Shown in pieces: positions 10,485 through 31,704 of a stretch of DNA of 64,000 nucleotides (within the stretch, counting starts at the first letter, position 1; each line of letters begins with the position of its first letter). The DNA lies in NCBI GenBank assembly GCA_965200235.1, contig OZ241339.1, positions 372,508 to 436,507 of the forward strand, given 5' to 3'. Position numbers and translations under genes: made by a program. Source of the stretch: Pseudomonadales bacterium. GTDB taxonomy: Bacteria > Pseudomonadota > Gammaproteobacteria > Pseudomonadales > Azotimanducaceae. The notes under the pieces are model-generated. The model made no database searches. It was given only the letters and a program-made list of their open reading frames with translations, and was not told the DNA's origin.

Positions 10485-10528
10485 GAGAATGTGGCACTTT
10501 CTCTCGTCGAGGGAGCATTAGAAAACCT

Positions 10529-13186
10529 GTGGCAGGGATGCGACGTCAAACCATCATCACGCTCGGCCGTTTCGCCATGCGCGAGCTTCGCTTGCAAGCG
10601 GCGCGCGAGGCGTCGTCGGGCCTCTCGATACTCACCATCGAGCAATTCGTTGCGCGGCTCGCGGGCGGGTTCGTTCGCGCCATCGACAAGGACACGCTGC
10701 GCGCGGCCATTATGAGGGTGAAGGAGAACACTCACCTCGGCGAATTGGAACCTATCAAGTCGCTGCCTGGCTTTTCGCGCGCCGCGGCGGACACCTTCTG
10801 CAAAGCATGGCTTGCCGGCATCGACATCGCGGCCCGTCAAGGCGAGCATCCGCGCATCGCCGCCATTGCGAGCCTTGAGCAGGCGGTGCTCCGCGAACTG
10901 CCGGCGAATACGCTGACGCCCACCGAGCTTGCCAAGAGAGCGCTCGCACGAGTGCAGCACGTCCGCGCCATCTTTGGCGAGGTGGAAGTCAGAGGATTCA
11001 CCGAGCTGTCGCCGTGCTGGCGCGAGTTGATCGGGTCAGTCGCTGGCGAAACCAAGGTCACTTGGCACGCCGGTCCGCGCGCCGTGCCCGAGTGGCTCGA
11101 TGGCAACAGGCTAGAGATCACAACTTCTTGTCCTGAGCATCCGGGCGTCACTTGTGTGAGCGCCGCCACTGCCTACCACGAGGCGATCGAGGCGATGCGC
11201 TGGGCGCGAGCACTGATCGCGTCCAAGCAAGCGAAGCCCGAGGAGATTGCGATCGCAGCCACCGCGTGCGACGACTACGACGATCATCTGCTTGCGCTGC
11301 GCTCGGACGCCAATATCGACGTTCATTTCGCGCACGGCATTCCGGTCACGGCGACGCGCGACGGGCAGGCGTGCGCGGCGCTCGCCGAGCTTGTTCTGCG
11401 CGGACTCTCGCGCACGAGAATGCACCGGCTCGCGCGACTTCTCGGCAAGTCGCCGGGCCCTTTCGAGTCCTTGCCTGAGGACTGGCTCGGCGCCTTCCCT
11501 GAAAGCGCGCCGCTCACACGGCTTGAGAGCTGGCGAAACTTAATCCTCGCGCAGGGGGATCTCGACTATGGCGCGCAGGTGCAGGACATCGTGGCGATGA
11601 TTGATCGCGGCGCGGAATTCGCAGAAGACACGGGCACAGCCTTGCTGACGGGCAAGGCGCGCCTGATATGGCGGCAGGCGCTTCTTCTCGGCCCGCCCGA
11701 GTCTCTTGACCTCAGCATTGAACGCCTGCGCACCGACGATAGCTTTGACCCCGGCAATTCAATCGCTTGGGCGCCGGCGAGCTCGCTCGCCGCCGCACCA
11801 AGGCCGCATGTCTACCTGCTCGGCCTCAATTCGCAGCGCTGGCCGCATGTGGCTTTTGAAGACCGGCTGCTCTCCGATCACATCATCCCGACTTCGCAAC
11901 TCGATCCGCTGCCGGTGAATCTTGCCGATACCCGCGATTTCGAGACCATTCTTGCGACGAGCGCGGCGTCGGTGGTGCTCTCGCACGCGCGGCGAGATCA
12001 CGAAGGGCGGCTGCTTGGCCGCAGCGCGCTCCTCCAGGGACAACCGAAAGAGATGTATCTCGGACGCCATCGGGTGCCGGTCCACGCTTGTAGCGAAATC
12101 GATCGACTTGCCGCGCGCGTGAATGAATTTGCCGACATGGCGCCCGCGAGAATGGCCGCGGCGTGCTGGCGCGATTGGAACGATCGGCAGGACTTGACCG
12201 CGCACGATGGCATTGTCCAAGCCGATCACCCCATCATCAAAGCGATCTTGCAGCGCACCCAGTCGGCGGCTTCGCTGCGCCTGCTGCTGCGAAATCCAAT
12301 TGGTTTTCTGTGGCGCTATGGCCTCGGCCTGATCGAACCGCAGGCAAGCGAAGATCCCTTGATCCTCGATGCGATCGCCATGGGCGACCTGGTGCACGAG
12401 ATGCTTGAGCATTCGCTCGTCGCGCTTGAGGACAGTCAAGGTCTTGCCAATGTCAGCGAAGGCGATGTGCGCCAGGCGGTCGATCAAGCGTCAAGCGAGC
12501 TTGCCGAGCACTGGCAGTTGTATCGCGCGGTGCCGCCGAGAAAACTTTGGCAGCGTAGCTTGATGGAAGCGCGCAAGCAGAGTGAGCGCGGCCTGCTGCT
12601 TAGGCAAGCTGGCGCCGTCGCCCACGCCGAAGTGCCGTTTGGTGGTGCCGACATCAAGACCACACGCGAACTGCCGTGGGATGCGCAAGCGCCGGTTGAA
12701 ATCCCGCAAGCAGGCTTTCTCATTCAAGGCTATATCGACCGGCTCGATCTCGGCGCCGATGGCGCATCGGCATGGGTGCGAGACTACAAGACCGGCAAGA
12801 CGCCCAAGATCGGCGACGCGCGGCCGTTCGTGCTTGACAAGGGGCGCGAATTGCAGCGCTGCCTCTACGCGTATGCGGTGCGCGCCATGCTTGGGCCGCA
12901 GGTGGATATTCATGCCTCGCTGCACTATTTGCGCGACGATGTGGATCTTGCGCTCGCCGATGCCGAACTCGTGCTTGAGACCCTCTCGTTTTTTCTCGCA
13001 TCGGCGCGCACAAGCTTCCAAAGCGGTGTCTGTGTAATCGGCGCTGACGCTGGCGACACTTACGATGATCTTGCCTTCGCGTTGCCGGCCAACGCCGCCA
13101 ATATCTACTGCAAGGTCAAGCGCGACCTCGTGCGCGACAAAATGAACGAAGCTGGCAATGCTGCAGACGTGTGGGAAGCAGACTGA
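10529..13186 (+). CDS. AddB-like PD-(D/E)XK nuclease family protein (inactive-helicase-like N-terminus)
   Basis: 885-aa ORF with no clear Walker A. C-terminal RecB-type nuclease motif GYIDRLDLGADGASAWVRDYKTGK ... LQRCLYAYA. It sits 5' of, and overlaps (TGATG, 13184-13188), an AddA-like gene, as in addB-addA operons. An alternative ATG start exists at 10538. Confidence 0.7.
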   Translation: MAGMRRQTIITLGRFAMRELRLQAAREASSGLSILTIEQFVARLAGGFVRAIDKDTLRAAIMRVKENTHLGELEPIKSLPGFSRAAADTFCKAWLAGIDIAARQGEHPRIAAIASLEQAVLRELPANTLTPTELAKRALARVQHVRAIFGEVEVRGFTELSPCWRELIGSVAGETKVTWHAGPRAVPEWLDGNRLEITTSCPEHPGVTCVSAATAYHEAIEAMRWARALIASKQAKPEEIAIAATACDDYDDHLLALRSDANIDVHFAHGIPVTATRDGQACAALAELVLRGLSRTRMHRLARLLGKSPGPFESLPEDWLGAFPESAPLTRLESWRNLILAQGDLDYGAQVQDIVAMIDRGAEFAEDTGTALLTGKARLIWRQALLLGPPESLDLSIERLRTDDSFDPGNSIAWAPASSLAAAPRPHVYLLGLNSQRWPHVAFEDRLLSDHIIPTSQLDPLPVNLADTRDFETILATSAASVVLSHARRDHEGRLLGRSALLQGQPKEMYLGRHRVPVHACSEIDRLAARVNEFADMAPARMAAACWRDWNDRQDLTAHDGIVQADHPIIKAILQRTQSAASLRLLLRNPIGFLWRYGLGLIEPQASEDPLILDAIAMGDLVHEMLEHSLVALEDSQGLANVSEGDVRQAVDQASSELAEHWQLYRAVPPRKLWQRSLMEARKQSERGLLLRQAGAVAHAEVPFGGADIKTTRELPWDAQAPVEIPQAGFLIQGYIDRLDLGADGASAWVRDYKTGKTPKIGDARPFVLDKGRELQRCLYAYAVRAMLGPQVDIHASLHYLRDDVDLALADAELVLETLSFFLASARTSFQSGVCVIGADAGDTYDDLAFALPANAANIYCKVKRDLVRDKMNEAGNAADVWEAD

Positions 13187-16100
13187 TGGTCGCGCTGCCC
13201 GACAATGACGCTCGGCGCGATGCCATGCGCGTCCATGACCGCACCTATCTGGTCGAAGCTGGCGCCGGCTCCGGCAAGACAGCCGTGCTCGCCGGACGCA
13301 TCGTCATGCTGCTCGCCGCCGGCGTCAAGCCAAAGCACATCGCGGCGGTGACCTTCACGGAACTCGCTGCAAGCGAACTCTTGGTTCGTGTCCGCAAGTT
13401 TGTGGACGCGCTGATGGCCGGCAACACTCCGGATGAGCTTGTGCTCGCGCTGCCGGACAGCCTCGCCGACGCCGAGCGCACGCACCTCGAAGATGCGTTG
13501 AAGCGTTTCGACGAGATCACATGCTCGACGATTCACGGCTTTTGCCAGCAGCTCATCAAACCCTATCCGGTGGCGGCGGACTTGGACCCCGGCGCGAGCG
13601 TGATGGATCGCGATCAAGCGGATTTAAGCTTCTTGGAGACGCGCACGCAATGGCTGAAGGGGAGGCTCGACCTTGAAGAGGACACGCCTCTCGCCAGCCT
13701 TGTTTGGCATGACCAGGCGAAATCGATCACGCTGTTTGATGAGGTGCTGGACATCCTGCGAGAGCACCCCCACATGGAAGTGCGCCAGTCAGTCCGTTTT
13801 GATGACCAGTGGAACGAATTCAAGGATGCCGCGGCGTCGTTCTCGGCCTTCATGGAAGGATGCCCGGTGTCAGAGCCGGAAACCGCGCAGATCGTGCACG
13901 CACTTCGCGGGATCGCGGCTGGTCACCAGGCAGCTGAAGAAATCGAGCGCCTGCTCAACGTCATGTCGGTGGGCGACGACCTGACGCTGTTCACGAAGGA
14001 CCGCAAGCCTCGCAGCTACAGGATGAAAGGCAAGTGGGAGAAAGCTGCGCAACAGGACGGCCTGTCCAAGGCCGAAGGCGGGCGCTGCTTTGAGACCGCC
14101 AAGGCAATCTACGGAATGTGCCTTGAATCCTTGCAGGCCCTGCAAGCGATTGCTTGCTCGACACTGCTGCGCCTCATCGTCTCTGAACTCAAGCCTGTGA
14201 TTGACGCATATCACGCGCACAAGCGCCGCACGGCGCAGCTCGATTTTGACGATCTCATTCGTGGCGCGCGCGATCTGCTGTGCGGTCATGAGGACATTCG
14301 CGTTGCCCTCGGCCGTCGCTACACGCACGTCCTCGTCGATGAGTTTCAAGATACGAACCTGCTGCAGACGGAGATCTTCTGGCGGTTGTGCGGGGACGCC
14401 CCCTCGGATGCAGCGCGCGACGACTGGACAGCATTCCGTATTCGTCCGGGGGCGCTCTTCCTCGTCGGCGACCCAAAGCAGGCGATCTACCGATTTCGCG
14501 GCGCCGATGTCGCGGCCTATGTGCGAGCGCGCGCGCTGCTGCTTGGCGAGGATGAAGGCGCGCTGCTTCGCATCTCCACCAATTTTCGCTCGCTGCCGTC
14601 GATTCTTGCGCATGTGAACGAGAAGTTCGAAGAGCCCTTGTCGGTGGAAGCCGGACAGCCCGGGTTTACGCCGCTCGATGCGTTTCTCGAAGAGACCTCC
14701 GCGCAGAGTCTTGCGCGCCTCGACGTCACCGTCGAGCCGGACGAGCAGGGTAAGGTGTCCGTGGACAGTCAACGGCAAGCCGAGGCCGATGCGGTGGCGC
14801 TCGTGTGCGCGAAGCTGATCGGCAGTGAGATGCTGCCGGGTGACGATGCCGGGTCGCGAACAGTCAAGCCCGGTGACATCGCGCTGCTCGCGCCTTCCGG
14901 CACCGATCTTTGGCGCTACGAGGAAGCCTTGGAGCGGCTCGCTATTCCGGTCGCCACGCAAGCCGGCAAGGGTCTCTACCGACGCCAGGAAATTCAAGAC
15001 CTGATCGCGCTCACGCGCGTGCTCGCCGACAGTCGGGATACCCTTGCGCTTGGTGCGCTGCTGCGCGGGCCGCTGGTCGGACTCAGCGACGAGGCGCTGC
15101 TTGACATCGCCCTACATGTGCGCGGCGAAAGCGAGGATATACCGCGCCTGCGTCTCTTCATGGAACTCGAACAGATCGACAACAGCGAAGCTCGCGATGT
15201 GATCGGCAAACTGCAATTTCTCTACGGCAAGGCAGCAAGCACCACGCCGCACCATCTCATCTCGCAGGCGATCGATCTCCTGCATGTTCGTCCGATCCTC
15301 ATGCGCCGCCACGCTGGCCAGGCAACGCGCGTGCTCGCCAATGTGGACTTGTATCTCAGCATGAGCCGCGCCTATGCGGTGCGCGGATTGAAAGCCTTTG
15401 CCGAAGCCATGACCGCCGCATGGCACGACGAGCAGCGCGCGCCGGAAGGACGTCCCGACGCGCAGGAAGAGTCGGTTGCGCTGTTCACCATGCACGCGGC
15501 CAAGGGCCTCGAGTGGCGCATCGTAGTGCCGGTGAACACCATGACCCAAGTGCGATCCGCCGACGGACAGTTTGTTGACCGCGTCAACGGATACTTCTAT
15601 TGCAAGGCGTTCGGCACCAAGCCGCTCGGCTATGATGAGGCGCAGCAAGCAGAGCAAGACGAGCTTGATCGCGAGCGAGTGCGCCTCTGGTATGTGGCGA
15701 CGACGCGCGCGCGGGATTTGCTGGTGCTGCCGAATGTGATGGCGGATCGTAAGAGCAACGTGTGGTCGGGGGTCGTTCCGCTCGACATCGAGTCTCTGCC
15801 AGAGATCAATCTTGAAGAGTTGTCGCCCGAACTGCCCGCGGTTGAAGGCGAGCTCGTGAACGAACAGACGCGCGAAGTGTTCGCTGAGGAGGCGAAGATC
15901 ATTGCGCATGGTCATCGGCGCATTGCCTGGCGCAGTCCAAGCCGAGATGAAGACATTGCCGCGCCGCTTGCTTCGGAAGTTGAGGGTGAGGTGTTTGCCA
16001 ATGACGATGAGGCGTCTCCCCCCGCAGTCGATGGGCTTGACGTGCAAGGCGGACTGCAGCGCGGTCTGCTGATACACAAGCTCTTTGAAGAAGTGCTGAC

Positions 16101-16527
16101 CGGCGAGTGCCAAGAGAATGAAGCGGACTTGACCGCGCGCGCCGAAACGCTCATCGGCGAACTTGGGCGCACTGCGAGCGAGAACGCTGCCGATGGTCTG
16201 TCGCCCGCCGAACTCGCCGGATGCGTGCGACGCGGACTCGCGCTGCCGCAAGTTGCCGAATTACGACCGCGCCTCGTCGCAGAATGCAGCGTCTTCGGGT
16301 CGCGCATCGAAGCGGACACCGAGCTCATGTTCGCCGGTATTGCCGATGCCATTGCGTTCGACACCACGGGCGCGCCCGAAGTGGTCATCGATTGGAAGAC
16401 CGACGTTGACCCGCGGACAAGTCAACTCAAGCACTATGGCGAGCAGGTGCGCGCCTATCTTGAACTCACCGGCGCGAAGCGTGGGCTTGTTGTGCTGGTG
16501 ACCACAGGACGGGTGCTTGCGGTCTGA
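13186..16527 (+). CDS. AddA-like UvrD-family helicase with C-terminal RecB-type nuclease
   Basis: Helicase motifs: YLVEAGAGSGKTAVLAGRIV, HVLVDEFQDTNLLQTEIF, LFLVGDPKQAIYRFRGA, STNFRS, LFTMHAAKGLEWRIV, LWYVATTRARDLL. C-terminal nuclease: IADAIAFDTTGAPEVVIDWKTD ... YGEQVRAYLELT. The track ORF starts at GTG 13171; I prefer ATG 13186, which overlaps the upstream stop. Confidence 0.85.
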   Translation: MVALPDNDARRDAMRVHDRTYLVEAGAGSGKTAVLAGRIVMLLAAGVKPKHIAAVTFTELAASELLVRVRKFVDALMAGNTPDELVLALPDSLADAERTHLEDALKRFDEITCSTIHGFCQQLIKPYPVAADLDPGASVMDRDQADLSFLETRTQWLKGRLDLEEDTPLASLVWHDQAKSITLFDEVLDILREHPHMEVRQSVRFDDQWNEFKDAAASFSAFMEGCPVSEPETAQIVHALRGIAAGHQAAEEIERLLNVMSVGDDLTLFTKDRKPRSYRMKGKWEKAAQQDGLSKAEGGRCFETAKAIYGMCLESLQALQAIACSTLLRLIVSELKPVIDAYHAHKRRTAQLDFDDLIRGARDLLCGHEDIRVALGRRYTHVLVDEFQDTNLLQTEIFWRLCGDAPSDAARDDWTAFRIRPGALFLVGDPKQAIYRFRGADVAAYVRARALLLGEDEGALLRISTNFRSLPSILAHVNEKFEEPLSVEAGQPGFTPLDAFLEETSAQSLARLDVTVEPDEQGKVSVDSQRQAEADAVALVCAKLIGSEMLPGDDAGSRTVKPGDIALLAPSGTDLWRYEEALERLAIPVATQAGKGLYRRQEIQDLIALTRVLADSRDTLALGALLRGPLVGLSDEALLDIALHVRGESEDIPRLRLFMELEQIDNSEARDVIGKLQFLYGKAASTTPHHLISQAIDLLHVRPILMRRHAGQATRVLANVDLYLSMSRAYAVRGLKAFAEAMTAAWHDEQRAPEGRPDAQEESVALFTMHAAKGLEWRIVVPVNTMTQVRSADGQFVDRVNGYFYCKAFGTKPLGYDEAQQAEQDELDRERVRLWYVATTRARDLLVLPNVMADRKSNVWSGVVPLDIESLPEINLEELSPELPAVEGELVNEQTREVFAEEAKIIAHGHRRIAWRSPSRDEDIAAPLASEVEGEVFANDDEASPPAVDGLDVQGGLQRGLLIHKLFEEVLTGECQENEADLTARAETLIGELGRTASENAADGLSPAELAGCVRRGLALPQVAELRPRLVAECSVFGSRIEADTELMFAGIADAIAFDTTGAPEVVIDWKTDVDPRTSQLKHYGEQVRAYLELTGAKRGLVVLVTTGRVLAV

Positions 16528-16640
16528 TAGTCATCGACACGCTCAGCTTAGGCGGTAGCCAATGAATGATAAACTGTGACCCAAATCGAGCGGAACTGAA
16601 TATCCGCTCCTATGTGCGCGATTGATCGGTGCGTGGCCCA

Positions 16641-17087
16641 ATGCAAGAGATCAGAATTTTCATCAACGACAAGCCTCGAGCCATCGTGGGTTTAGAGCAT
16701 AGTGTCGAGGCTATGCTTAAGGAAGGCGAATGCACAAGCGAGAATGGCGTATTGGTGACTAACGACGGTATCACCCATGACGACCCTGCTGAGATTGTTC
16801 GTATTGGCGATGGCGATAGGTTGAAAGTATTGCCGGTAGGCGGCGACCGCACCATTTGCTACCAAGTCAACGGCGAGGCCCAAACTACCGTTAGCAGCCC
16901 TTTGACTGTGGGGGAAATCCTTGAACGCGCTGGCGCGTCAGCTAGCGTCAATGTCAATGATCGAGCCAGCTACTATCTTGAGAACCTTGCGACTGAGCAA
17001 CGTTACGACGACCCCGATGCTGAAGTAGCAGTTTGCGAGGATGATCGATTTATAGCTGTGCATCGCGGCCCAGCACCCGTTGCATGA
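16641..17087 (+). CDS. tandem beta-grasp (multi-ubiquitin-like) protein
   Basis: 148 aa from ATG 16641 (GTG 16629 also possible). Two similar halves, IRIFINDKPRAIVG...DRLKVLP and ICYQVNGEAQTTVSSPLTVGEIL...RFIAVHRG. It ends PAPVA with no terminal GG. Its stop overlaps the next start (ATGA, 17084-17087), and it lies in an operon with E2-like and JAB-E1 genes. Confidence 0.65.
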   Translation: MQEIRIFINDKPRAIVGLEHSVEAMLKEGECTSENGVLVTNDGITHDDPAEIVRIGDGDRLKVLPVGGDRTICYQVNGEAQTTVSSPLTVGEILERAGASASVNVNDRASYYLENLATEQRYDDPDAEVAVCEDDRFIAVHRGPAPVA

Positions 17088-17461
17088 CGCCTATCACGAA
17101 GGTCTTGGCCGAGCTGCAAGAGCTAGGACACGCTGCGCAGTGTTGCCAGCCCGACGGTTTCGGGTATGTCCTTGCAGTATTCGAGTATCCAGTCGATTCA
17201 GGCCGGTTTCGTGGGCACAGATTTAGAGTGGGCATAGGCTTTCAGGAAGATGCGTATCCCGAGTATCCGCCACACTGGCTATGCGTCTCGTCCTTGTCTG
17301 ACAATAGGATCCCTCAGCATAGCGGATTCACATTTGAAGGTGCCGATTGGCGTGTGTTCAGCGTCCCGCCTAGCGATGTCTGGGATTCGTTGCCGACTTC
17401 GCAGAAGAATATGAAAACCTATCTTCGCTTGCACATGACTCGATTCTGGGATCAGGTGTGA
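17084..17461 (+). CDS. prokaryotic E2 (UBC-fold)-like protein
   Basis: 125-aa ORF with the UBC/RWD-like motif AYPEYPPHW followed by Cys (HWLCVSS). It is coupled to both neighbours by 4-nt overlaps (ATGA at 17084, GTGA at 17458). Confidence 0.6.
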   Translation: MTPITKVLAELQELGHAAQCCQPDGFGYVLAVFEYPVDSGRFRGHRFRVGIGFQEDAYPEYPPHWLCVSSLSDNRIPQHSGFTFEGADWRVFSVPPSDVWDSLPTSQKNMKTYLRLHMTRFWDQV

Positions 17462-18960
17462 AACACGAAGCCGTCATTCCCGAGCGCATCAATGATCGAG
17501 TCAGCGACTTGCTGCTGCGGCATGTTCGTGGCGGGAAGCGGCAAGAAGAGCTTTGTTTCGGTCTGTGGCGACCGAGCACCGGTGCAACCCGACGCACGTC
17601 TATTCTGTTCGACATCATTCCGCCTGAACCGGATGAACGTCGATTGCACGGAAACGCGAGCTTCACTCCCGAATATCTTACCCGCGCCGTGCGCCTTGCT
17701 TGCGATCGGAAAGCTGGCCTCGCCTTCATGCACAACCATCTCGCCCCAGGCTGGCAGGACATGAGTGAACCCGATATTGTTGCGGAGCGCGAACGCATAT
17801 CGCCCCCGGCTCGGGCGACCGGCTACCCCCTTCTCGGACTGACACTTGGCACAGATGGCAGTTGGAGTGGCCGACTCTGGCAGTGGAACGGCGGGAAGTT
17901 CAATCGCGTGTGGTGCGACAAGGTGCGCGTAGCAGGCAAGCGATTGCGGATTACCTTCAATGACAAAGCTATCCCGCCTCCTGCAAGGCGTTCCGTCCTG
18001 CAACGTACCATTGATACTTGGGGGGCAGGATGTCAAAACATCATCGCCCGCCTTCGTGTGGGTGTCGTGGGCGTAGGGAGTGTTGGTTCTATGGTCTCCG
18101 AGGCGCTCGCTCGAATGGGGGTTGAACGGTTGACACTTATCGATCCAGATAGAGTCGAGATGCATAATCTTGACCGCCTTGTACATGCTGGCATCGATGA
18201 TGTAGGGCGAGCTAAGGTAGAAGTCGCCGCGCATCGGCTGCGAGTGAGCGCAACCGCAGAGCGCTTTGATATTCGGACGTATCAACTGCCAATTGAGAAT
18301 GAGACGGCGCTACTTTCAGCCTTGGATTGCGACCTGCTCTTTTCCGCTGTTGACCGTCCGTTGCCGAAGGACTTGCTCAATCGGATCGCCTACGTGCATT
18401 GCATTCCGGTGATCTCTGGTGGCGTGTTTGTGGGCAAGAAGAGTGACGGCACCTTAGGTCAGGCGGCATGGAGCGTAGCTATCGTCGGCCCATCACGGCG
18501 CTGTCTTCGCTGTGACGGACAATACAACTCTTCAGAGGTCGTTTTGGAACGCGACGGGTCGTTCGACGACCCAAGTTATGTTACCAATGCAACTGGCCGC
18601 GAGCAGGCGAACCAGAACGTCTTTCCTTTTTGCACGAATCTTGCGAGCCTTATGGTGATCGAAATGGCGAGACTCATCGTGGCAGCGGATTGGTGGCCGG
18701 ATGTCGGTGGCAAGCTGCATTACAGTCTCATTCCAGGAAGGCTTCAACACGAACAAGGAATGTGTCAGCCGAATTGCTCGATACGTGAAACAGAGGCCCT
18801 CGGCGATGCGTATCAGTACCCATTTGTACAGCCTGCGGACACACGACAAGCACCGACGCGCCAAACTCGAGTCGGACTCGCTAAAATCTGGCGTTTTATA
18901 AGGGACTTATATACAAAAGTTGACAGCCCCCCCCACCATTGCGAACCGCCCCAGAGTTGA
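17458..18960 (+). CDS. JAB/JAMM peptidase - ThiF/E1 adenylyltransferase fusion protein (3' end altered by IS insertion)
   Basis: N-terminal JAMM signature: EELCFGLW ... MHNHLAPGWQDMSEPD. E1 Rossmann domain: RVGVVGVGSVGSMVSEALARMGVERLTLIDPDRVEMHNLDRL ... FSAVDRPLPKDLLNRIAYVHCIPVISGG, plus a CxxC (CLRCDG). The last about 19 codons (from about 18902) are read from the inserted tnpB element. Confidence 0.85.
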   Translation: MKHEAVIPERINDRVSDLLLRHVRGGKRQEELCFGLWRPSTGATRRTSILFDIIPPEPDERRLHGNASFTPEYLTRAVRLACDRKAGLAFMHNHLAPGWQDMSEPDIVAERERISPPARATGYPLLGLTLGTDGSWSGRLWQWNGGKFNRVWCDKVRVAGKRLRITFNDKAIPPPARRSVLQRTIDTWGAGCQNIIARLRVGVVGVGSVGSMVSEALARMGVERLTLIDPDRVEMHNLDRLVHAGIDDVGRAKVEVAAHRLRVSATAERFDIRTYQLPIENETALLSALDCDLLFSAVDRPLPKDLLNRIAYVHCIPVISGGVFVGKKSDGTLGQAAWSVAIVGPSRRCLRCDGQYNSSEVVLERDGSFDDPSYVTNATGREQANQNVFPFCTNLASLMVIEMARLIVAADWWPDVGGKLHYSLIPGRLQHEQGMCQPNCSIRETEALGDAYQYPFVQPADTRQAPTRQTRVGLAKIWRFIRDLYTKVDSPPHHCEPPQS

Positions 18961-18973
18961 GTAAAATAGCACC

Positions 18974-20200
18974 GTGAGATACACCCATCGCTCAACCCGT
19001 TACCGCTTACTTCCGTGTACGCATGCGAAGCATCAATTGTTATGGCAGGTGACCGGTGCCTGTATTTGGGTATGGAACCGAATGCTCGCGTACAACGAAG
19101 AGGAATACGCATGGCATGAACGGATTCCGTGGGTCCTGCCAAAGCCATCGACGCGGTTTGAATCAACCGCAAAGATATTCACAAAGCTCCGTGCGAAGAC
19201 AGACTGGCTGCAGTCACTGCCGTTCGGTGCTGTTCGTCATACGCTTCAGTACCAAGCACGTGCATGGGAGAAGTATTTTAAGAGGCAAGGTGGTCGTCCG
19301 CAGTACAAGTCAAGGTATCGGACGCGGGCGGTGACGTTCCCTGAACCCGGACATTTTCAGTTGTCGGGAAGTAGCCTCCGCTTGCAGAAACTTGGATGGT
19401 TCCGCCTTGCTCGACGAGGCAACGACCCATACCGTGACTACGAACCACGTGCGGTGACGATCAAACGAGAATGCGGACGATGGTATGCGGTGATTCGGTA
19501 TCGGGTGCCCGCACACGAAGTCGAACACATTGACGATGGTCACGCAATCGGTGTAGACATGAATGTGGGACAAGTTGCATGCAGCGACGGCGAGATCGTT
19601 CGGCTTGACCGTGAACGCCTTGAAAGGCTTGAATGCCGGAAGCGTCGATATCAGCGCCGCATGGCACGACAGGTGATCGGGTCAAACCGAAGGGAAGTGA
19701 CAAAGCAACGTCTATCGAACGTGTATCGGAACATTCGCTGCTATCGAGACAACTGGCACCACCACACGTCAAAGGCGATTGCTGAGAAAGCCGGTACGGT
19801 CGTTGTCGAAAAGCTCAACACCAAAGGCATGACGGCTTCAGCGAAAGGTGATGTCGTCACCCCCGGAAAGAATGTCACGCGGAAAGCTGGCTTGAACCGT
19901 GAGATTCTCAACACCGGATGGTCAAGTCTCAAACACAAGCTCAGCTACAAGTCGGCACGACTCATTGAAGTGAACCCGCAATACACGTCCCAGACGTGCT
20001 CCCGATGCGGGTTTGTGGATGCGAGAAACAGACCCACACAAGCCAAGTTCAAGTGCTTGGCGTGTGGGCATACAGACAATGCTGATGTGAATGCGGCATT
20101 GAATATATTGGCGTCGGGGACTGGCGCAACTAGACGTGGAGGTGGCGAGGTCACTCGGCCTGTGAAGCGTCAAGAAGTAGCGGAACGAGGGTCAACGTGA
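18974..20200 (+). CDS. tnpB: TnpB RNA-guided endonuclease (IS605 OrfB family)
   Basis: 408-aa ORF. RuvC-I is AIGVDMNVG and RuvC-II is TVVVEKLN. The Zn finger is QTCSRCGFVD ... FKCLACGHTDNADVNAALNILASG, which includes the RuvC-III Asp. The N-terminus YRLLP...WNRMLAYNEE is typical of TnpB. Confidence 0.9.
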   Translation: MRYTHRSTRYRLLPCTHAKHQLLWQVTGACIWVWNRMLAYNEEEYAWHERIPWVLPKPSTRFESTAKIFTKLRAKTDWLQSLPFGAVRHTLQYQARAWEKYFKRQGGRPQYKSRYRTRAVTFPEPGHFQLSGSSLRLQKLGWFRLARRGNDPYRDYEPRAVTIKRECGRWYAVIRYRVPAHEVEHIDDGHAIGVDMNVGQVACSDGEIVRLDRERLERLECRKRRYQRRMARQVIGSNRREVTKQRLSNVYRNIRCYRDNWHHHTSKAIAEKAGTVVVEKLNTKGMTASAKGDVVTPGKNVTRKAGLNREILNTGWSSLKHKLSYKSARLIEVNPQYTSQTCSRCGFVDARNRPTQAKFKCLACGHTDNADVNAALNILASGTGATRRGGGEVTRPVKRQEVAERGST

Positions 20201-20234
20201 CCTGTCAAGTTTCGTATATAAATCCCTTTTATAA
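20050..20234 (+). ncRNA. expected omega-RNA (reRNA) scaffold of TnpB, overlapping the tnpB 3' end and right end
   Basis: Pure inference from the known TnpB architecture, in which the omega-RNA spans the ORF 3' end to the right end. No structure was verified. The boundaries are approximate. Confidence 0.25.
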
Positions 20235-20249
20235 AGGGGCTGCGACCTG

Positions 20250-21488
20250 ATGGCTAGCGTCACAACCCTCAATCTGCGGGACATCCGATGCTTCGCGGGT
20301 GAGCAGTCTGGGCGACTCGCCCGAATCACCTTGCTCGTGGGCGCAAACGGTGCTGGCAAGTCCACTTTTCTTGGTTGCTACAAGACGCTGACTCGTTTAG
20401 CGAACCTGCACAAGCTTGATGACGAGAACTACTTTGACGAAGCGCCGTTTGAAATGGGTGGTTTTGACACCATTGCGCGAACAGGTTGTGATGCATTCTC
20501 TTTGGGCGCTGAGTTTGCCGATCACTGCCACGAATCTCTGCGGTTTGACTTCGCAAGGGCAAATGGAAGCGAGCCTATCGAGCAGAAAGTTCGCCTTGGC
20601 TGGAACGATGACTATATGGACATTAGCCGGCGCGCTGCCGCTACTGAATCGTTTCTTATCCTAAATTCTCGATTTTCCTTCGCTCTGAATCGAGCATACA
20701 TTTCTTACGCGCAGGTCTCGACCTGGCTGGCACGGGCGGTGAAGTACGGACATATGCCGTTCAATGGCGATGTCGCGTCGTTCCGGCGGAGCAGTAGATC
20801 AGTGACCGAAGATGATGTGATTGCCTTTAGTCGATTTATATCACTCCTGCGGTCTGGCTTGCCGTTGCCAGTTGACGAGGCGTTCAGTGTGCATGCGCTC
20901 GATCCACACTTGGAACGTCGACAACGCACGTATTTGTTGCAGCCCCAGCTCTTGCCTGCGCTAGACCCGGAAGCACTAGCTTTTCTGGCAGACCTCGGCA
21001 AGCGCTTGGAGCTTTGGACTGATGTGAGAACCAAGGGCGAAGCAAACGGGTTTGCGATTCTTGTGGACTCGGTAGCGGGTACGCATAACCTCATGGATGT
21101 CGGCTTTGGTGTGCACAGTATGTTGCCACTTGCGAGAGCTATCTACGAGCGGCCCGCACATGCAATGCTCCTGCTACAGCAGCCGGAAGTTCACCTGCAT
21201 CCCGAAGCTCAAGCGAATCTCGCGCAATTCATGGTGGAGAGCCAGCAAGGGTTTCTCATTGAGACACATAGCGATCATTTCTTGGATCGATTTCGCATAT
21301 CCGTCATGCGAAAGCAATTGTCGACGGATGATCTCTCTATCCTCTACTTTGAGCCCGTGAATGACGGCAGCGCATCTGTTATTCATCACATCGCAGTTGA
21401 CGAGTCCGGCAATCTGATCAACGTTCCGAGGAACTTTCGATCATTCTTCGACCGCGAGATCAACGCGCTTCTTGGCTTTGAAGATTAG
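20250..21488 (+). CDS. AAA/ABC-type ATPase (AAA_15/21 with DUF3696-like C-terminus)
   Basis: Walker A is LLVGANGAGKSTFLG. Signature/Walker B region: MLLLQQPEVHLHPEAQANLAQFMVE ... GFLIETHSDHFLDRF. The C-terminal tail ...LINVPRNFRSFFDREINALLGF resembles DUF3696 ATPases. The family name is from memory. Confidence 0.75.
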   Translation: MASVTTLNLRDIRCFAGEQSGRLARITLLVGANGAGKSTFLGCYKTLTRLANLHKLDDENYFDEAPFEMGGFDTIARTGCDAFSLGAEFADHCHESLRFDFARANGSEPIEQKVRLGWNDDYMDISRRAAATESFLILNSRFSFALNRAYISYAQVSTWLARAVKYGHMPFNGDVASFRRSSRSVTEDDVIAFSRFISLLRSGLPLPVDEAFSVHALDPHLERRQRTYLLQPQLLPALDPEALAFLADLGKRLELWTDVRTKGEANGFAILVDSVAGTHNLMDVGFGVHSMLPLARAIYERPAHAMLLLQQPEVHLHPEAQANLAQFMVESQQGFLIETHSDHFLDRFRISVMRKQLSTDDLSILYFEPVNDGSASVIHHIAVDESGNLINVPRNFRSFFDREINALLGFED

Positions 21489-21527
21489 TTATGATGAGAG
21501 TGGTGGCAGGGCCCGGCTTGCGGATTA

Positions 21528-21772
21528 GGGCGTGTTAACACTATGCACGTTGACGCTGCCGAGACCCGTTTTCCGCCAGACAAGGCCGAGCGAGCGCTGT
21601 GTGGCCTACCCCACATGAGCGAGCGAGAACGAAGGCTGGCGGAAAACGGGGCCGGCCCGAAGGGTTGTCGCCTGAGCAAGAGCCGGAGCGAACACTTTGG
21701 GGCATGCGAATGGGCTTTTTCGGCTCTTGCACAGGCGACAACAGCGTCGGTGGGCATAGTGTTAACACGCCC
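21528..21772. mobile_element. MITE family A, copy 1 (about 245 bp, perfect TIR, TA flanks within TTAG/CTAG)
   Basis: TIR GGGCGTGTTAACACTATGC (21528-21546) and its exact reverse complement at 21754-21772. The interior is highly self-complementary. A second, inverted copy with about 90% identity lies at 31458-31704. Confidence 0.8.
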
Positions 21773-21856
21773 TAGATGGAATGCCTCAGCCACTTCAAGA
21801 ATGGACACGTCCTAATATGTGCCAGCGTTCCGCTCGAATCTGGAGGCTCTTCAAGA

Positions 21857-22300
21857 GTGTGTACCAAAACCATACTTGATGCCAGCCTGTTCTCCCGATT
21901 TGGCGACAATGAAATGAAGGCTTGGAGACAGTGGATCGAGAGTGGCGATGGCGTACTCGCCTACACGACGACCGGACGATTTGGACGGGAATTGCGGAAC
22001 AACTGGATGATCAGAAACTATGTGTTCGGTCAACGTAGAGGGCGTTCTGCGTTAGTCAAGAAGCCGGAATTGGATGAGGCCGCTGCGGAGCTACAGGGAC
22101 GCGAGTTTAGTTCCAATGATCAGCATGTACTTGAGCTCGCGCTGGCGAGTAGCGCCCAGGTGTTATGCACCGGTGACGAAGCTTTGAAGCAGGACTTCCT
22201 CAAGAATCTGCCAAAGTTGCGTCGGGGCGTGTATCCGCACAATGCGTCGCGCAAGGCCCGTGAAAAATTCCTGTCGGCGTATCGGTGTAGCGCAGGCTGA
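21857..22300 (+). CDS. PIN-like domain protein (putative nuclease)
   Basis: Track ORF is 21776-22300. I prefer GTG 21857, preceded by GGAGG (21842-21846); ATG 21776 directly abuts the MITE end. Acidic residues sit in PIN-like positions: TILDAS near the N-terminus, SSNDQHVLELA and LCTGDEAL. Confidence 0.5.
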   Translation: MCTKTILDASLFSRFGDNEMKAWRQWIESGDGVLAYTTTGRFGRELRNNWMIRNYVFGQRRGRSALVKKPELDEAAAELQGREFSSNDQHVLELALASSAQVLCTGDEALKQDFLKNLPKLRRGVYPHNASRKAREKFLSAYRCSAG

Positions 22301-22363
22301 GCTTGCTCGCGGCGGTAGTTGCAATCGAGACGTAGGAGTCATTCAAGGCATAAGAGGTTGCTG

Positions 22364-25237
22364 ATGGCTGGTAATTCCACAGAAGTCGCATACAACTTTG
22401 CGCTCGCTAAGCTGCTTCGTCTTGAAGGGTTGAACGCCCAAGCGGAGCAGCGCAAGAAGTTCGGGTCTGCACGCGGACAAGCCGATGTGCTGATCGACTT
22501 CGATGACTACGCGGTTGTCATTGAGGCGGAGTTTGGCAGCCCCGGCAAGAAAGATGCCGACAAGCGATTCCCTCGCGAGGCGCCTGCCGTGGTCAACGGA
22601 CTCGAAGTGCGCTTGGTCGTTGCCCTTGGCTACCCGGCGCACTTGGCGCAGTTGCCTGAAAGCGATTCTGAATCCAATTTGTCCGAGCGGAGCGACCTGC
22701 GAATCGCCTACCGATACTACGGTGAAGATTGGGGAGAAGAATCTTCGACGTCGGTGGCGGCTCTTGCGGCAACCTTGCGGGATTATTGGGTGCAGAGCGA
22801 TAACGGCATCGGTATTGAAGAGATCGTTGAGCAAGCCTCCGAGGCGATTCGGCTAGCGGCGTCGGTCTTGGAAAAAGTGGATGCGGACGGAGAGGAAAAT
22901 GCCGACGGCCCCTCGACCAAAGCGCTCATCTGGCTGAACGCACTGCTGTTTCAAGAATTGCTGGCGCGGCATTTCGATCACTCCGAGCTGCCTGCCGAAC
23001 ACGCTGATAAGAAGATCCGGCGCCCGGACCCGGAACGCGGCGCCGAACACTTGCTGTCCCAATGGATCGAACTGCTCGAAATCAACTGGTGGCCCATCTT
23101 TCATATCGCCAAAGAGACCTTGAAGACGACACCTGCGCCGAACGACTATCAAGCGCTTGCTATCTTGAAGCGTGCGGCGGCGGAGATTGCCGAGACAGGT
23201 GCCATCCGCAGGCACGATGTCGCTGGCCGTATTTTTCATCGCCTGCTGGACTCGCGGAAGTTCCTAGCGACGAACTACACGACAATTCCAGCAGCCATCA
23301 TGCTGGCGGGACTTGCGTTTGATGAGCGCAGCGAAAGCTGGCGTGGGATTGATTTCTCGAGTCCTGCGAGCGTGAAGGCGCTGAAGGTCGTAGACCCCGC
23401 CTGCGGCAGCGGCACTTTGCTGATGGCGGCGACTCAGGAAATTCTCAAACGTGCGCGCAGGACCGACGATGCCAGTTTCGACGAGCGGGCGGTGGTGCGC
23501 GCGGTTCTTGAGGAAGCGCTGTATGGATTCGACGTGGTGCCGGCCGCCGTGCATCTGGCCGCCTCAACGCTGTGCATGGCGGAGGCGCGCCAACTCATTC
23601 AGGACATGCAATTGTGGCGGTTGCGACATGAAGTCGTAGAAGGATTGCCGAGGCTCGGCAGCTTGGATTTTCTCGCTACCTCCCCAAGCAAGGGGTTTGC
23701 GAAACCGCTCGGCCTGTTTGAGGAGGAAGGTGTCTCCACGAGAGTGTCGGGGTCGGCGGAGCAAAGAGAACAGATGGACATGCCGGGCAAGTGCCATTTG
23801 GTGATCGCCAATCCGCCGTATACGAGGGCGGGCGGGCCTGGAAACGAAGACAATAGCAATTGGAATCCTATCTTTGGCTCGCTGCTTGATGGCAAGGATG
23901 CCGACACGATGAAGCGCGCCTTGGAGAAGGCGCTGAGCCCAACGGCGGCAAGCATGTATGCAGGGCTCGGTTCGGCCTTTGTCGAGCTTGCTAACCAGCA
24001 TCTCGATCACCAGGGTCGCCTTGCCTTCGTGCTGCCCGGCACGCTGCTATCTGGGACTCGCTGGGCGAGCGTTCGTCAGCTCCTGCTCGGCAACTACTGC
24101 ATTGACTGGGTGGTTGTCAGTCACGACGGGCGCAATCGCAGCGCGCGCAAAGAGTTGCCGGGGAGAAGATGGATTGCATTTTCGGAATCCACGCGCATCG
24201 CCGAAACACTGGTCGTTGCGACCAAGAACGCTGGCGACGCCAGGCAGCATCATCAAGTGCGATTTGTGAATCTATTGCGCAATCCCGACGAGCCGCTTGA
24301 GGCACTTGCGCTCACGCAACGGCTTCTGGCACTGGATGAGGAGGGCGTGCCTTCGGAGCCTGTGTCGATCAGGATTGGTGATAGGAATTGGGGGAGTGTC
24401 GTTGCTGTTCCACAAACAGAACTTGATCAAGGCCCATGGTCGTATGCGTCTCTTGTACAGCCAGAACTTTCGAGCACGAGGCTGCGGCGTTCGTCTTCAT
24501 CCACACACTTCTTGGATAATATTCCGAGAGTGGAGTTGCAGAACCTTGCAGATTTTGGTCCGTATGAGATGCAGATTAAGAACCCTGATCAGGGACTGTT
24601 TACGATCATTCAATCGACAGAGACTTTGCATGCGGGCATTCCCGCGCTTTGGCACCATAAATCGACCTACAACAACACGCTTCTGGCGGCATCGGATGCA
24701 CGATTGCAAAGGCGGAGTGACAAGGATTCGAAGAAGCAGGAGGCCATGCTTGCGAAGCAGCGTCGTCTTCATCTCGCCCGTGAACTTGGGTGGGCCCCGC
24801 AAAAACTGGCCTGTGTACTAACCGAGACACCGATGCTTGGCGTTAGGTCTTGGGTAACGATTCTATTGCATCATGGTGTTGGCGGCGCTGAGGAAGCGCT
24901 GTGCCTTTGGTTCAATTCGACACCTGGCGTGTTGATGCGGGTGCTGCATGGGGGGCGACCCTATCTTGGTAGGTCTACGATCACGCATGAGCTTGCACGC
25001 AGTTTGCCAGTGCTCGATGTTGGCAAGCTTGATCAGCAGCGACTGAAGGCATCGGTAGACATCTTCCATAGTCTCAAGAACCGTCCGCTGCAAGGATTTA
25101 CAGACATTGCAACCGATCCCGTGCGGAGAGAACTGAATAGCCGCTTTGCCAAAGAGGTACTCGACGTGGACCCCAACCTGATTGAGGCATTGACGCAAAA
25201 GCTGGCGCTGGAACCCACCATGCACGTTCGGCACTGA
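22364..25237 (+). CDS. large gamma-class N6-adenine DNA methyltransferase, possible fused type IIG/IIL restriction-modification enzyme
   Basis: Motif I is VVDPACGSGTLLMAA and motif IV is VIANPPYTRAGG. The N-terminus has a PD-(D/E)XK-like string (GQADVLIDFDDYAVVIEAEFG). The protein is about 957 aa. An upstream in-frame ATG at 22319 is also possible. Confidence 0.65.
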   Translation: MAGNSTEVAYNFALAKLLRLEGLNAQAEQRKKFGSARGQADVLIDFDDYAVVIEAEFGSPGKKDADKRFPREAPAVVNGLEVRLVVALGYPAHLAQLPESDSESNLSERSDLRIAYRYYGEDWGEESSTSVAALAATLRDYWVQSDNGIGIEEIVEQASEAIRLAASVLEKVDADGEENADGPSTKALIWLNALLFQELLARHFDHSELPAEHADKKIRRPDPERGAEHLLSQWIELLEINWWPIFHIAKETLKTTPAPNDYQALAILKRAAAEIAETGAIRRHDVAGRIFHRLLDSRKFLATNYTTIPAAIMLAGLAFDERSESWRGIDFSSPASVKALKVVDPACGSGTLLMAATQEILKRARRTDDASFDERAVVRAVLEEALYGFDVVPAAVHLAASTLCMAEARQLIQDMQLWRLRHEVVEGLPRLGSLDFLATSPSKGFAKPLGLFEEEGVSTRVSGSAEQREQMDMPGKCHLVIANPPYTRAGGPGNEDNSNWNPIFGSLLDGKDADTMKRALEKALSPTAASMYAGLGSAFVELANQHLDHQGRLAFVLPGTLLSGTRWASVRQLLLGNYCIDWVVVSHDGRNRSARKELPGRRWIAFSESTRIAETLVVATKNAGDARQHHQVRFVNLLRNPDEPLEALALTQRLLALDEEGVPSEPVSIRIGDRNWGSVVAVPQTELDQGPWSYASLVQPELSSTRLRRSSSSTHFLDNIPRVELQNLADFGPYEMQIKNPDQGLFTIIQSTETLHAGIPALWHHKSTYNNTLLAASDARLQRRSDKDSKKQEAMLAKQRRLHLARELGWAPQKLACVLTETPMLGVRSWVTILLHHGVGGAEEALCLWFNSTPGVLMRVLHGGRPYLGRSTITHELARSLPVLDVGKLDQQRLKASVDIFHSLKNRPLQGFTDIATDPVRRELNSRFAKEVLDVDPNLIEALTQKLALEPTMHVRH

Positions 25238-31457: not shown

Positions 31458-31704
31458 GGGCGTGTTCACACTATGCCCGCCGACGCTGTTGTCTCCTGAG
31501 CAAGAGCCGAAAAAGGTGAATCACGTGCCCCAAATGGGTCGCTCCGGCTCTTGCTCAGGCGAAAACCCTTCGGGCCGGCCCCGTTTTCCGCCAGCCTTCG
31601 TTCTCGCTCACTCATGGGGGGGGTAAGCCCCACAGCGCTCGCTCGGCCTTGTCTGGCGGAAAACGGGTCTCGGCAGCGTCGGCGGGCATAGTGTGAACAC
31701 GCCC
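31458..31704. mobile_element. MITE family A, copy 2 (inverted relative to copy 1)
   Basis: TIR GGGCGTGTTCACACTATGCCC (31458...) and its complement ending at 31704. It is about 90% identical by eye to the reverse complement of 21528-21772. TA flanks lie at 31456-31457 and 31705-31706. Confidence 0.8.

Follow-up and report, generated by a model that had tools for sequence, protein, structure and literature searches.

A probably cysteine-free, Bub-like conjugation cassette in a conserved five-gene operon with an ABC-type ATPase and a putative PIN-like nuclease

The closest described counterpart of the locus reported here is the Type I Bub pathway, made up of a JAB-E1 protein, a multi-ubiquitin protein and an E2, which has been reconstituted and structurally solved (bioRxiv 10.1101/2024.11.21.623953; PDB 9ea4 and 9eae). 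BubCD of this pathway has no cysteine in the crossover loop and uses Tyr370 instead, BubB uses Ser333, and the Y370F and S333A/H335A variants lose conjugation (bioRxiv 10.1101/2024.11.21.623953). Type I BubAB is cut after a conserved Gly. The catalogue of Bub systems was built from operons containing DUF6527, and divides them into Type I, known earlier as 6E.1/DUF6527 operons (BubAB, BubCD and BubE), and Type II (BubA, BubBD and BubE); the targets and the biological role of Type I Bub are not established in the literature. Two further systems are relevant. The ubiquitin-like proteins (Ubls) of Bil have a conserved Gly and, after it, residues that are not conserved and get removed, and the CD-NTases of Type II CBASS (systems for anti-phage signaling based on cyclic oligonucleotides) end in a conserved Gly or Ala. 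Here we analysed a stretch of 64,000 nucleotides (nt) from a Pseudomonadales bacterium of the Azotimanducaceae (assembly GCA_965200235.1, contig OZ241339.1, positions 372,508 to 436,507), called the window throughout, in which a first-pass annotation had noticed a three-gene Ubl conjugation cassette. We consider it probable, with a good deal of room for doubt, that this cassette is a diverged, BubE-less relative of Type I Bub which lies in a five-gene operon, and which would combine cysteine-free tagging with an arm composed of an ATPase and a PIN-like protein.

Gene coordinates in the window were taken from a list of open reading frames (ORFs) and from a reading of the raw sequence. Three plus-strand ORFs were listed at 16629-17087, 17084-17461 and 17458-18960, and the 4-nt overlaps that chain them were read in the raw sequence as ATGA (17084-17087) and GTGA (17458-17461), so that both the coordinates and the overlaps given in the first-pass annotation were verified. 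To collect relatives, an alignment of ORF3 served as the seed of a pattern scan over one genome per species, which yielded 74 loci. Profiles of ORF1 and ORF2, followed by ORF clustering, were then applied to these loci for their neighbouring genes. A homologue of ORF2 was present in 69 of the 74 loci and a match to the ORF1 profile in 68; in 66 loci the ORF1 match lay just upstream of the E1 gene, and for both profiles a position right next to the E1 gene on its upstream side was nearly constant. The small genes of the relatives are mostly chained by the same 4-nt overlaps or by gaps of a few nucleotides. With the three genes kept together in most of these loci, chance in a GC-rich genome does not account for their arrangement. 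The assignment of the cassette to the class predicted by Iyer, Burroughs and Aravind was likewise borne out by the combination of a Ubl, an E2-like protein and a JAB-E1 fusion and by weak but recurrent Multi_ubiq and Prok-E2_E matches, but the accompanying remark that this architecture had no experimental definition is outdated, since Type I Bub has been reconstituted and solved.

Clustering of the ORFs in the 74 loci yielded two more conserved plus-strand genes directly 3' of the E1 gene. A homologue of the first, which encodes an ATPase, was found in 71 of the loci and a homologue of the second, which encodes a PIN-like protein, in 64; wherever placement was possible, both lie downstream of the E1 gene in a tight array, and in most loci the PIN-like gene follows the ATPase gene. 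No sixth conserved gene family was found by the clustering. A scan for promoters and terminators gave no enrichment, and Rfam had no match over positions 16000-22500. The conserved operon has five genes, encoding the Ubl, the E2, the JAB-E1 protein, the ABC ATPase and the putative PIN-like nuclease. The extent of 16629-18960 first assigned to the locus holds for the cassette, but the conserved operon also includes the ATPase and PIN-like genes, and is interrupted in the window by two insertions.

The loci that carry this operon come almost entirely from metagenome-assembled genomes of Acidobacteriota, Gemmatimonadota, Latescibacterota, Binatia, Rhodothermales, Spirochaetia, Chloroflexota, and Alpha- and Gammaproteobacteria. 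Many of the genome names refer to sponges or corals, among them Poriferihabitans and the Palauibacter species irciniicola and poriticola, and judging from these names the hosts would be mostly sponge or coral symbionts. More distant relatives, of 28-37% identity, consist of the three-gene core without the ATPase-PIN pair and lie on actinobacterial and haloarchaeal plasmids. These plasmid cores (L077-L084) were found in Mycobacterium avium, Mycobacteroides abscessus, Rhodococcus, Nocardioides, Clavibacter and Pseudarthrobacter, often beside genes of the ImmA/IrrE or HigA families or beside helicases; DEAD-box helicases and an RNase H-like gene come after the haloarchaeal core, which lies on a Haloprofundus plasmid (L079).

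Whether the five genes form one system or two was weighed on their arrangement. A Ubl cassette that works alone could merely adjoin a separate ATPase-PIN defence module: defence genes cluster in islands, pairs of an ATPase and a nuclease are common as stand-alone defence modules, with matches to NsnB, AriA, GajA and PtuA in the present ATPase, and the plasmid relatives hold the three-gene core with other neighbours or with none. We regard this reading as distinctly unlikely, because in nearly all loci of the sponge-type subfamily, across many phyla, the ATPase gene directly follows the E1 gene with an overlap or spacing of 0-8 nt. The plasmids, moreover, gave no full-length relative of the ATPase, only partial matches of about 30% identity. 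The divergence of the ATPase and PIN-like proteins also tracks that of the E1 and E2. When the 38 loci that have all five genes are ranked by identity to the window, the rankings for E2, E1, ATPase and PIN correlate (rho 0.6-0.78), which argues for their inheritance as a unit; the ranks of the Ubl, which is fast-evolving, do not correlate with those of the other four.

Gene 3 (17458-18960, plus strand) encodes a protein of 500 residues in which a JAB/JAMM peptidase is fused to a ThiF-type E1. Pfam ThiF matched it with an E-value of 3e-32, and its best match in the PDB was Citrobacter BubCD (9ea4), which covered both domains with an E-value of 6e-16 for the single sequence and 3e-22 for the profile. 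The JAB-E1 protein of this clade has well over a hundred close cluster representatives. The JAMM residues E30, H92, H94, S103 and D106, as well as the nucleotide loop G205-G210, R240 and D299, are invariant in a wide alignment that reaches actinobacterial and haloarchaeal relatives of about 30-35% identity. The fusion of a JAMM domain to a ThiF/E1 domain with a CxxC, as read in the first-pass annotation, is thus present with all its motifs.

The cysteines of this E1 domain were examined separately. C349xxC352 is invariant in the relatives examined and C440 nearly invariant, and C436 is kept in the closer relatives only; together the four likely form a structural zinc site, as in ThiF, MoeB and UBA5. 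The CxxC was also considered as a catalytic motif and rejected, since it is co-conserved with C436 and C440 in the pattern of a zinc site. Downstream of C352, no conserved Cys was found in the crossover loop of the sponge-type and actinobacterial relatives. What is conserved there is the motif G-x-(L/F)-D-D-P-x-Y, whose Tyr374 (codon 18577-18579), kept in at least 90% of the wide alignment, lies 22 residues past C352. In UBA5 the catalytic C250 lies 21 residues past the second zinc Cys. Tyr374 is a candidate catalytic residue of the crossover loop.

Through its adenylation domain, ORF3 also matched ThiF, MoeB, TcdA and MccB, as would be seen if the locus belonged to a sulfur-carrier or peptide-modification pathway of the ThiS/ThiF, MoaD/MoeB or MccB type. 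Such a pathway is extremely improbable here. The NCBIfam matches scored 50-80 bits, against cut-offs of 150-450, and the 74 loci have no conserved neighbour of the rhodanese, thiazole, molybdopterin or microcin kind, whereas the locus has both an E2-like protein and a JAMM domain, and ORF3 matches BubCD best.

Gene 2 (17084-17461, plus strand) encodes a UBC-like E2 of 125 residues. Its AlphaFold2 model, with a predicted local distance difference test (pLDDT) score of 92.7, was compared with known structures by Foldseek. Judged by probability and TM score, the best fold match was Citrobacter BubB (9eae_C), with a Foldseek probability of 0.98 and a template modelling (TM) score of 0.57, and matches to eukaryotic E2s were weaker (TM 0.4-0.5). 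ORF2 itself gave nothing significant in Pfam, NCBIfam or PADLOC, and the exact protein has no database record. An exhaustive hidden Markov model (HMM) search with the ORF2 profile recovered 73 cluster representatives among 1.84 billion, and 36 sequences across their diversity were aligned. Pfam Prok-E2_E gave sub-threshold matches to 7 of these 36 family members, with a best E-value of 1.6e-7, and hhalign placed the N-terminal half of ORF2, with helix 1 and the YPxxPP motif, against UbcH5b at an E-value of 6e-4 and a probability of 28%. The fold matches to BubB and to eukaryotic E2s and the Prok-E2_E matches in the family support the earlier description of ORF2 as UBC-like.

The residues conserved in the E2 family point to serine chemistry. 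Only P63, S93 and W100 are invariant in the alignment of 36 sequences, and His64 and His117 are nearly so. The window protein carries YPEYPPHWLC, in which the Cys after HW is Cys67 (codon 17282-17284); His, Tyr or Thr stands at this position in other family members. Ser93 (codon 17360-17362; that of His64 is 17273-17275) follows a beta-hairpin, precedes a short helix, and lies 7 residues N-terminal to the invariant Trp100. In UbcH5 the catalytic C85 stands 8 residues before the conserved W93. By this motif spacing, Ser93 would occupy the position of the catalytic Cys of an E2. The actinobacterial relatives retain the Ser within a W-x-R-H-S-R motif.

Gene 1 was identified as a tandem beta-grasp Ubl of 148 residues (16641-17087, plus strand) from its ORF, the starts of its homologues and its fold model. 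A GTG at 16629 is an alternative start that would give 152 residues, but the true start is probably the ATG at 16641, because the homologues of ORF1 begin with MQEI. The AlphaFold2 model of ORF1 (mean pLDDT 83) shows two beta-grasp units, and Foldseek matched it best to the bacterial multi-ubiquitin proteins of Bub operons (9cd2, 8u38 and 9d59), to linear di-ubiquitin and to ISG15 (E 3e-7 to 1e-5). Sequence and model thus agree with the two beta-grasp halves and the end HRGPAPVA that had been noted before. ORF1 itself had no significant match in the profile searches of Pfam, NCBIfam and PADLOC, and among 32 Ubls of the family 13 gave a sub-threshold match to Pfam Multi_ubiq, with a best E-value of 1e-4.

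We then compared the C-terminal tails of the Ubls. In the window the tail reads R-G147-P-A-P-V-A152 in the numbering of the 152-residue form, with the stop codon next; codons 17067-17069 and 17082-17084 encode the Gly and the terminal Ala. Across 32 aligned Ubls of the sponge type the tail is G-x-T-P-V-A, with G, P, V and A invariant. Where the Ubl is a separate protein, it ends exactly in TPVA in 42 of 57 cases, and the remainder carry 2-13 unrelated residues. In 6 of the 74 loci the Ala is directly joined to the first residues of the E2 domain to form a Ubl-E2 fusion, and remote fused relatives keep G-x-T-P-V-(A/S) and then continue into variable sequence. Each of the seven Ubls examined from actinobacterial plasmids has -VA as its exact end (RADVA, AGPVA, CAPVA, IGGVA, VGGVA, SAPVA and VGGVA), and three of the seven are without Gly at position -5. 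This Gly is invariant in the sponge-type subfamily; what the wider family retains is -VA, not the Gly.

In ubiquitin-type precursors the boundary of conservation marks the processing site, and since it falls here after the Ala, cleavage after the Gly is unlikely. For E1 activation of a terminal Ala, bacteria offer a precedent in the Type II CBASS CD-NTases, which end in Gly or Ala. On this pattern the Ala is probably the adenylated end of the Ubl, and the Ubl of the window would be made in its mature form, with no trimming needed.

These residue patterns bear on a canonical thioester cascade, in which the Cys of HWLC in the E2 and a Cys of the E1 would carry the Ubl, and the JAB domain would cut after the Gly of HRG. 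The first-pass annotation had leaned this way, since it implied a catalytic Cys in ORF2 and suggested processing after that Gly. A Cys does follow YPEYPPHW in the window, and Gly147 is invariant in the sponge-type subfamily, at a type of residue after which BubAB is cut and which precedes the extra residues of Bil Ubls. The cascade is nevertheless quite improbable. In place of the Cys after HW, family members carry Tyr, Thr or His, while Ser93 is invariant in the 36 family members and retained in the actinobacterial relatives; C349xxC352 fits a zinc site, and the crossover loop has no other conserved Cys. As to the tail, T-P-V-A is as conserved as the Gly, conservation runs through TPVA and stops there, with the sequence past the Ala variable or absent, and the three actinobacterial Ubls mentioned above are without the Gly altogether. 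Neither the catalytic Cys of ORF2 nor the processing after HRG is thus upheld.

The two downstream genes were characterized from their motifs and profile matches. Gene 4 (20250-21488, plus strand) encodes an ABC-type ATPase of the AAA_21/AAA_15 class with 412 residues, matched by Pfam AAA_21 with an E-value of 4.7e-14 and, weakly at the C-terminus, by DUF3696. Its invariant motifs are a Walker A (G31..GKST39), QQPEvHLHP (310-318) and ETHSDH (338-343). The PADLOC model of NsnB matched with an E-value of 1.6e-36, over the C-terminal 130 residues only; PDC-M55A and HEC-03B matched as well, and AriA, GajA and PtuA gave partial matches. Gene 5 (21857-22300, plus strand), whose homologues were found in the 64 loci given above, encodes a putative PIN-like nuclease of 147 residues that starts at GTG 21857. 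A longer version of 174 residues, starting at 21776 in the ORF list, was rejected because the homologues begin with MC..., which corresponds to GTG 21857.

The protein encoded by gene 5 begins with a conserved MC...D(A/T)S motif. Asp35, Asp115 and Asp140 (in the numbering of the 174-residue version) are invariant and Asp134 is nearly so, an arrangement like that of PIN domains. Profile matches in the family were sub-threshold. Of 29 members, 10 were matched by Pfam PIN, with 1e-4 as the best E-value, 9 by PIN_9, 6 by PIN_3 and 9 by TIGR00305, and PIN_4 was also among the weak matches; the family profile had no match in the PDB. We assign gene 5 to the PIN-like proteins with moderate confidence. 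With its AAA_21/AAA_15 ATPase followed by a small predicted nuclease, the pair resembles Septu PtuAB, Gabija GajAB, PARIS AriAB and the systems with ATPases of the Menshen NsnB type. The present pair differs from these in that the partner is PIN-like and not of the HNH, Toprim or DUF4435 type, and in that the pair is joined in an operon with a Ubl conjugation module.

Compared as a whole with Type I Bub, the cassette shares the JAB-E1 fusion, with E30, H92, H94 and D106 of ORF3 corresponding to E28, H91, H93 and D104 of Bub and R240 to R227. Common to both as well are a Ubl of several beta-grasp units and a small UBC-like E2 in which an invariant Ser would take the place of the Cys. Judged by position and conservation, the E1 crossover loop is probably alike too, with a conserved Tyr and no conserved Cys. 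The Ubl-E2 fusion of the 6 loci and of a few remote relatives resembles BubAB, whereas in the window and in most loci the Ubl and the E2 are encoded by separate genes. The conserved end of the Ubl is ...TPVA and not a terminal Gly, and the operon continues, unlike that of Type I Bub, into the ABC ATPase and PIN-like genes. ORF1 and ORF2 are too diverged from BubA and BubB for detection by sequence. DUF6527 (BubE) was found neither among the conserved families of the 74 loci, nor among the called genes of loci L075, L085 and L086, nor among the window proteins scanned. We describe the cassette as one that would work like Bub but stands outside Type I, being without BubE and the S-x-H motif and usually without the BubAB fusion.

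The other systems share fewer of these features. Type II Bub has a stand-alone multi-ubiquitin Ubl, the top Foldseek match of ORF1 being that of E. coli ZDHYS365 (9cd2), and a serine-type E2. Its E2 is fused to the E1, however, it usually lacks a JAB domain and it includes BubE, whereas here the JAB is fused to the E1, the E2 is free and BubE is absent. Like Type II CBASS, the operon contains an E1 of the ThiF-type homodimeric class, a non-canonical E2 and a JAMM peptidase together with what would be an effector module, and the conjugated C-terminus can be Ala in CBASS, as it probably is here. It differs from CBASS in having no CD-NTase, a dedicated Ubl, and an E1 fused to JAB rather than to the E2, and Cap2 has catalytic cysteines; the PADLOC models for Cap2 and E1-E2 proteins matched only residues ~180-400 of ORF3. 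No CapH/CapP, CapW or CapK/CapS gene stands out among the conserved genes of the sponge-type loci. The cassette resembles Bil in its defence context, in having a Ubl built as a tandem beta-grasp and in keeping the E2 and JAB functions apart, but Bil uses a multidomain E1 (IAD-AAD-CYS), a Cys-type E2 and a Ubl with Gly plus a tail, while ORF3 combines a single adenylation domain with JAB.

We propose that the E1 domain of ORF3 would adenylate the C-terminal Ala of the tandem beta-grasp Ubl (...G-P-A-P-V-A). Because the crossover loop has no conserved Cys, the activated Ubl would then pass to Tyr374 as an oxyester. From there it would move to Ser93 of ORF2, probably aided by His64 and/or His117, and finally to an amino group on a target protein. 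In relatives whose Ubl is extended or fused to the E2, the JAMM domain of ORF3 would cut after the Ala; since no BubE protease is present, the same domain probably also deconjugates. The ATPase and the PIN-like protein are a likely sensor or effector arm, which may be controlled by conjugation or may direct it, and, taken as a whole, the operon most likely serves in defence or stress response and moves horizontally. In this scheme the adenylation, the Tyr/Ser oxyester relay and the JAB activity are drawn by homology from Bub, and the reactive Ala and the functional coupling to the ATPase and PIN-like genes are suggested by conservation.

Several points weigh against this proposal. Neither ORF1 nor ORF2 found a true match in the PDB, with sequence or with profiles, and the fold match of ORF2 to BubB, at TM 0.57, has a weak E-value (0.095). 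BubB carries an S-x-H motif (S333/H335, with D299 upstream), whereas the E2 here has F-S-V-P-P with the conserved H64 and H117. The HMM alignment to BubCD ends at residue 331, before the crossover loop, so that Tyr374 is equated with Tyr370 by position and conservation. A C-terminal Ala is unusual for E1 substrates, and the invariance of Gly147 within the sponge-type subfamily leaves room for cleavage after the Gly. The PIN assignment of gene 5 rests on the sub-threshold matches, and the plasmid relatives show by their three-gene core that the ATPase-PIN pair is not obligatory. The literature to mid-2026 cites only Types I and II of Bub and shows no phage protection by any of them. Finally, the copy in the window may be impaired by the two mobile elements.

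The first of these, a TnpB-only element of 1325 bp (18902-20226, plus strand), lies between genes 3 and 4. Its tnpB ORF (18974-20200) matched Pfam OrfB_IS605, Cas12f1-like_TNB and HTH_OrfB_IS605; the element contains no TnpA gene, and no omega-RNA-type Rfam family was found for it within 16000-22500. It ends in 17-bp imperfect terminal inverted repeats at 18902-18918 and 20210-20226 (GGGAYTTATATACRAAA) and is flanked by an 8-bp duplication, TTTTATAA, at 18894-18901 and 20227-20234. To our knowledge, IS200/IS605 elements have neither terminal inverted repeats nor a flanking duplication. When the element was removed in silico, the E1 ended in ...IWRFIKGLRPDG before its stop codon, to be compared with ...MWRFFKRLLTDG at the same place in L085, an uninterrupted relative of 75% identity. 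The removal also restored an 8-nt overlap of the E1 and ATPase genes identical to that of L085, and on this reconstruction the ancestral ATPase start overlapped the E1 stop by 8 nt. The insertion has thus replaced the last seven residues of the E1 and broken its translational coupling to the ATPase, and the last 19 codons of ORF3 now derive from the element.

The same TnpB insertion is present in L075, a metagenomic relative of 98% identity. Directly behind the ATPase gene of that locus (L075:10347-13506) stands a ribosomal-protein operon (L16, L29, S17, L14 and others) in the place of the PIN-like gene; this junction may reflect a rearrangement or a chimera made in assembly. A run of eight C, at 18927-18934, lies within the element's left end. 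The tail of ORF3 reads HHCEPPQS in the window and TIANRPRVE in the relative P0017, because the frame differs from the C-run onward. In a Rhodothermales locus (L040:4346-5602) another TnpB, 42% identical to that of the window, lies between the Ubl and E2 genes, and is a second, independent TnpB insertion into the same operon family.

The other insertion in the window, of ~247 bp (21526-21774, no strand assigned), lies between genes 4 and 5 and resembles a miniature inverted-repeat transposable element (MITE), with the terminal inverted repeat GGGCGTGTTAACACTATGC. A second copy of this MITE is found at 31458-31704, and both copies have terminal inverted repeats of the form GGGCGTGTT(A/C)ACACTATGC as well as internal hairpins. 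Despite the two insertions, all five reading frames are intact in the window.

The surroundings of the operon were also inspected. The GC content is 54-58% across ~16-25 kb, against 61-65% in the flanks. Upstream, three large genes of host-like GC content occupy 5349-16527; they encode a DEAD + UvrD double helicase of 1711 residues, a PD-(D/E)XK protein of 885 residues resembling AddB, and an AddA/RecB-like helicase-nuclease of 1118 residues, and could belong to a repair or defence system. Directly after the PIN-like gene, positions 22319-25237 encode a protein of 972 residues with an N6-adenine methyltransferase core and weak matches to PglX/BREX, MAD2 and type IIG enzymes. A homologue of 29% identity lies upstream of the cassette in L057, and the gene is not conserved in the other loci. 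The defence-like setting suggested by the first-pass annotation agrees with this low-GC stretch between helicase-nuclease and methyltransferase genes. PADLOC names no system in the window, where its matches are to a Cap2-like adenylation core and to generic ATPase and methyltransferase families. Farther downstream, a single plus-strand ORF of 7942 residues (32434-56262), with a Calx-beta domain in its first 3000 residues, probably encodes a giant protein of the surface or adhesin type.

Such surroundings also bear on the purpose of the operon. The same chemistry could serve in stress or proteostasis tagging, or as an addiction module of mobile DNA, and not act against viruses. A PIN nuclease with a regulator recalls the logic of toxin-antitoxin systems, the actinobacterial plasmid relatives stand beside regulators of the ImmA/IrrE and HigA types, and, as said above, phage protection has been shown for no Bub operon. 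This alternative we hold to be unlikely, though of appreciable weight. Neighbours of the defence-island type occur in the window, in L085, where the operon adjoins a type I restriction-modification system, and in other loci, where 4 of 9 large flanking genes sampled are of the restriction-modification or helicase type, and the literature describes the related Bil and CBASS Cap2/Cap3 pathways as antiviral. In addition, no relative of ORF3 was found in phage GenBank records or in IMG/VR, a collection of viral contigs.

What is new here is the five-gene unit, the likely Ala end of the Ubl, the set of E2 residues, the spread across phyla and the two insertions; an earlier bioinformatic mention is possible. 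In its fullest form, the proposal would be that of an undescribed immune or stress system, in which an Ala-activated, cysteine-free module with a Tyr/Ser oxyester relay controls, or is guided by, the ATPase-PIN pair, and which has spread horizontally through sponge and coral symbionts of about ten phyla in the sea, with its three-gene core also on actinobacterial and haloarchaeal plasmids, and this we put forward tentatively, as somewhat short of an even chance. Bub pathways are the only known ubiquitin-type cascades without catalytic cysteines. Catalogues seeded with DUF6527 appear to be incomplete, in that they miss a sizeable clade without BubE. The natural variants of this clade, in which the Ubl is split, extended or fused to the E2, together with the -TPVA end, would offer a test of Ubl activation and of JAB specificity, and the ATPase and the PIN-like nuclease would give tagging of the Bub type an explicit candidate output.

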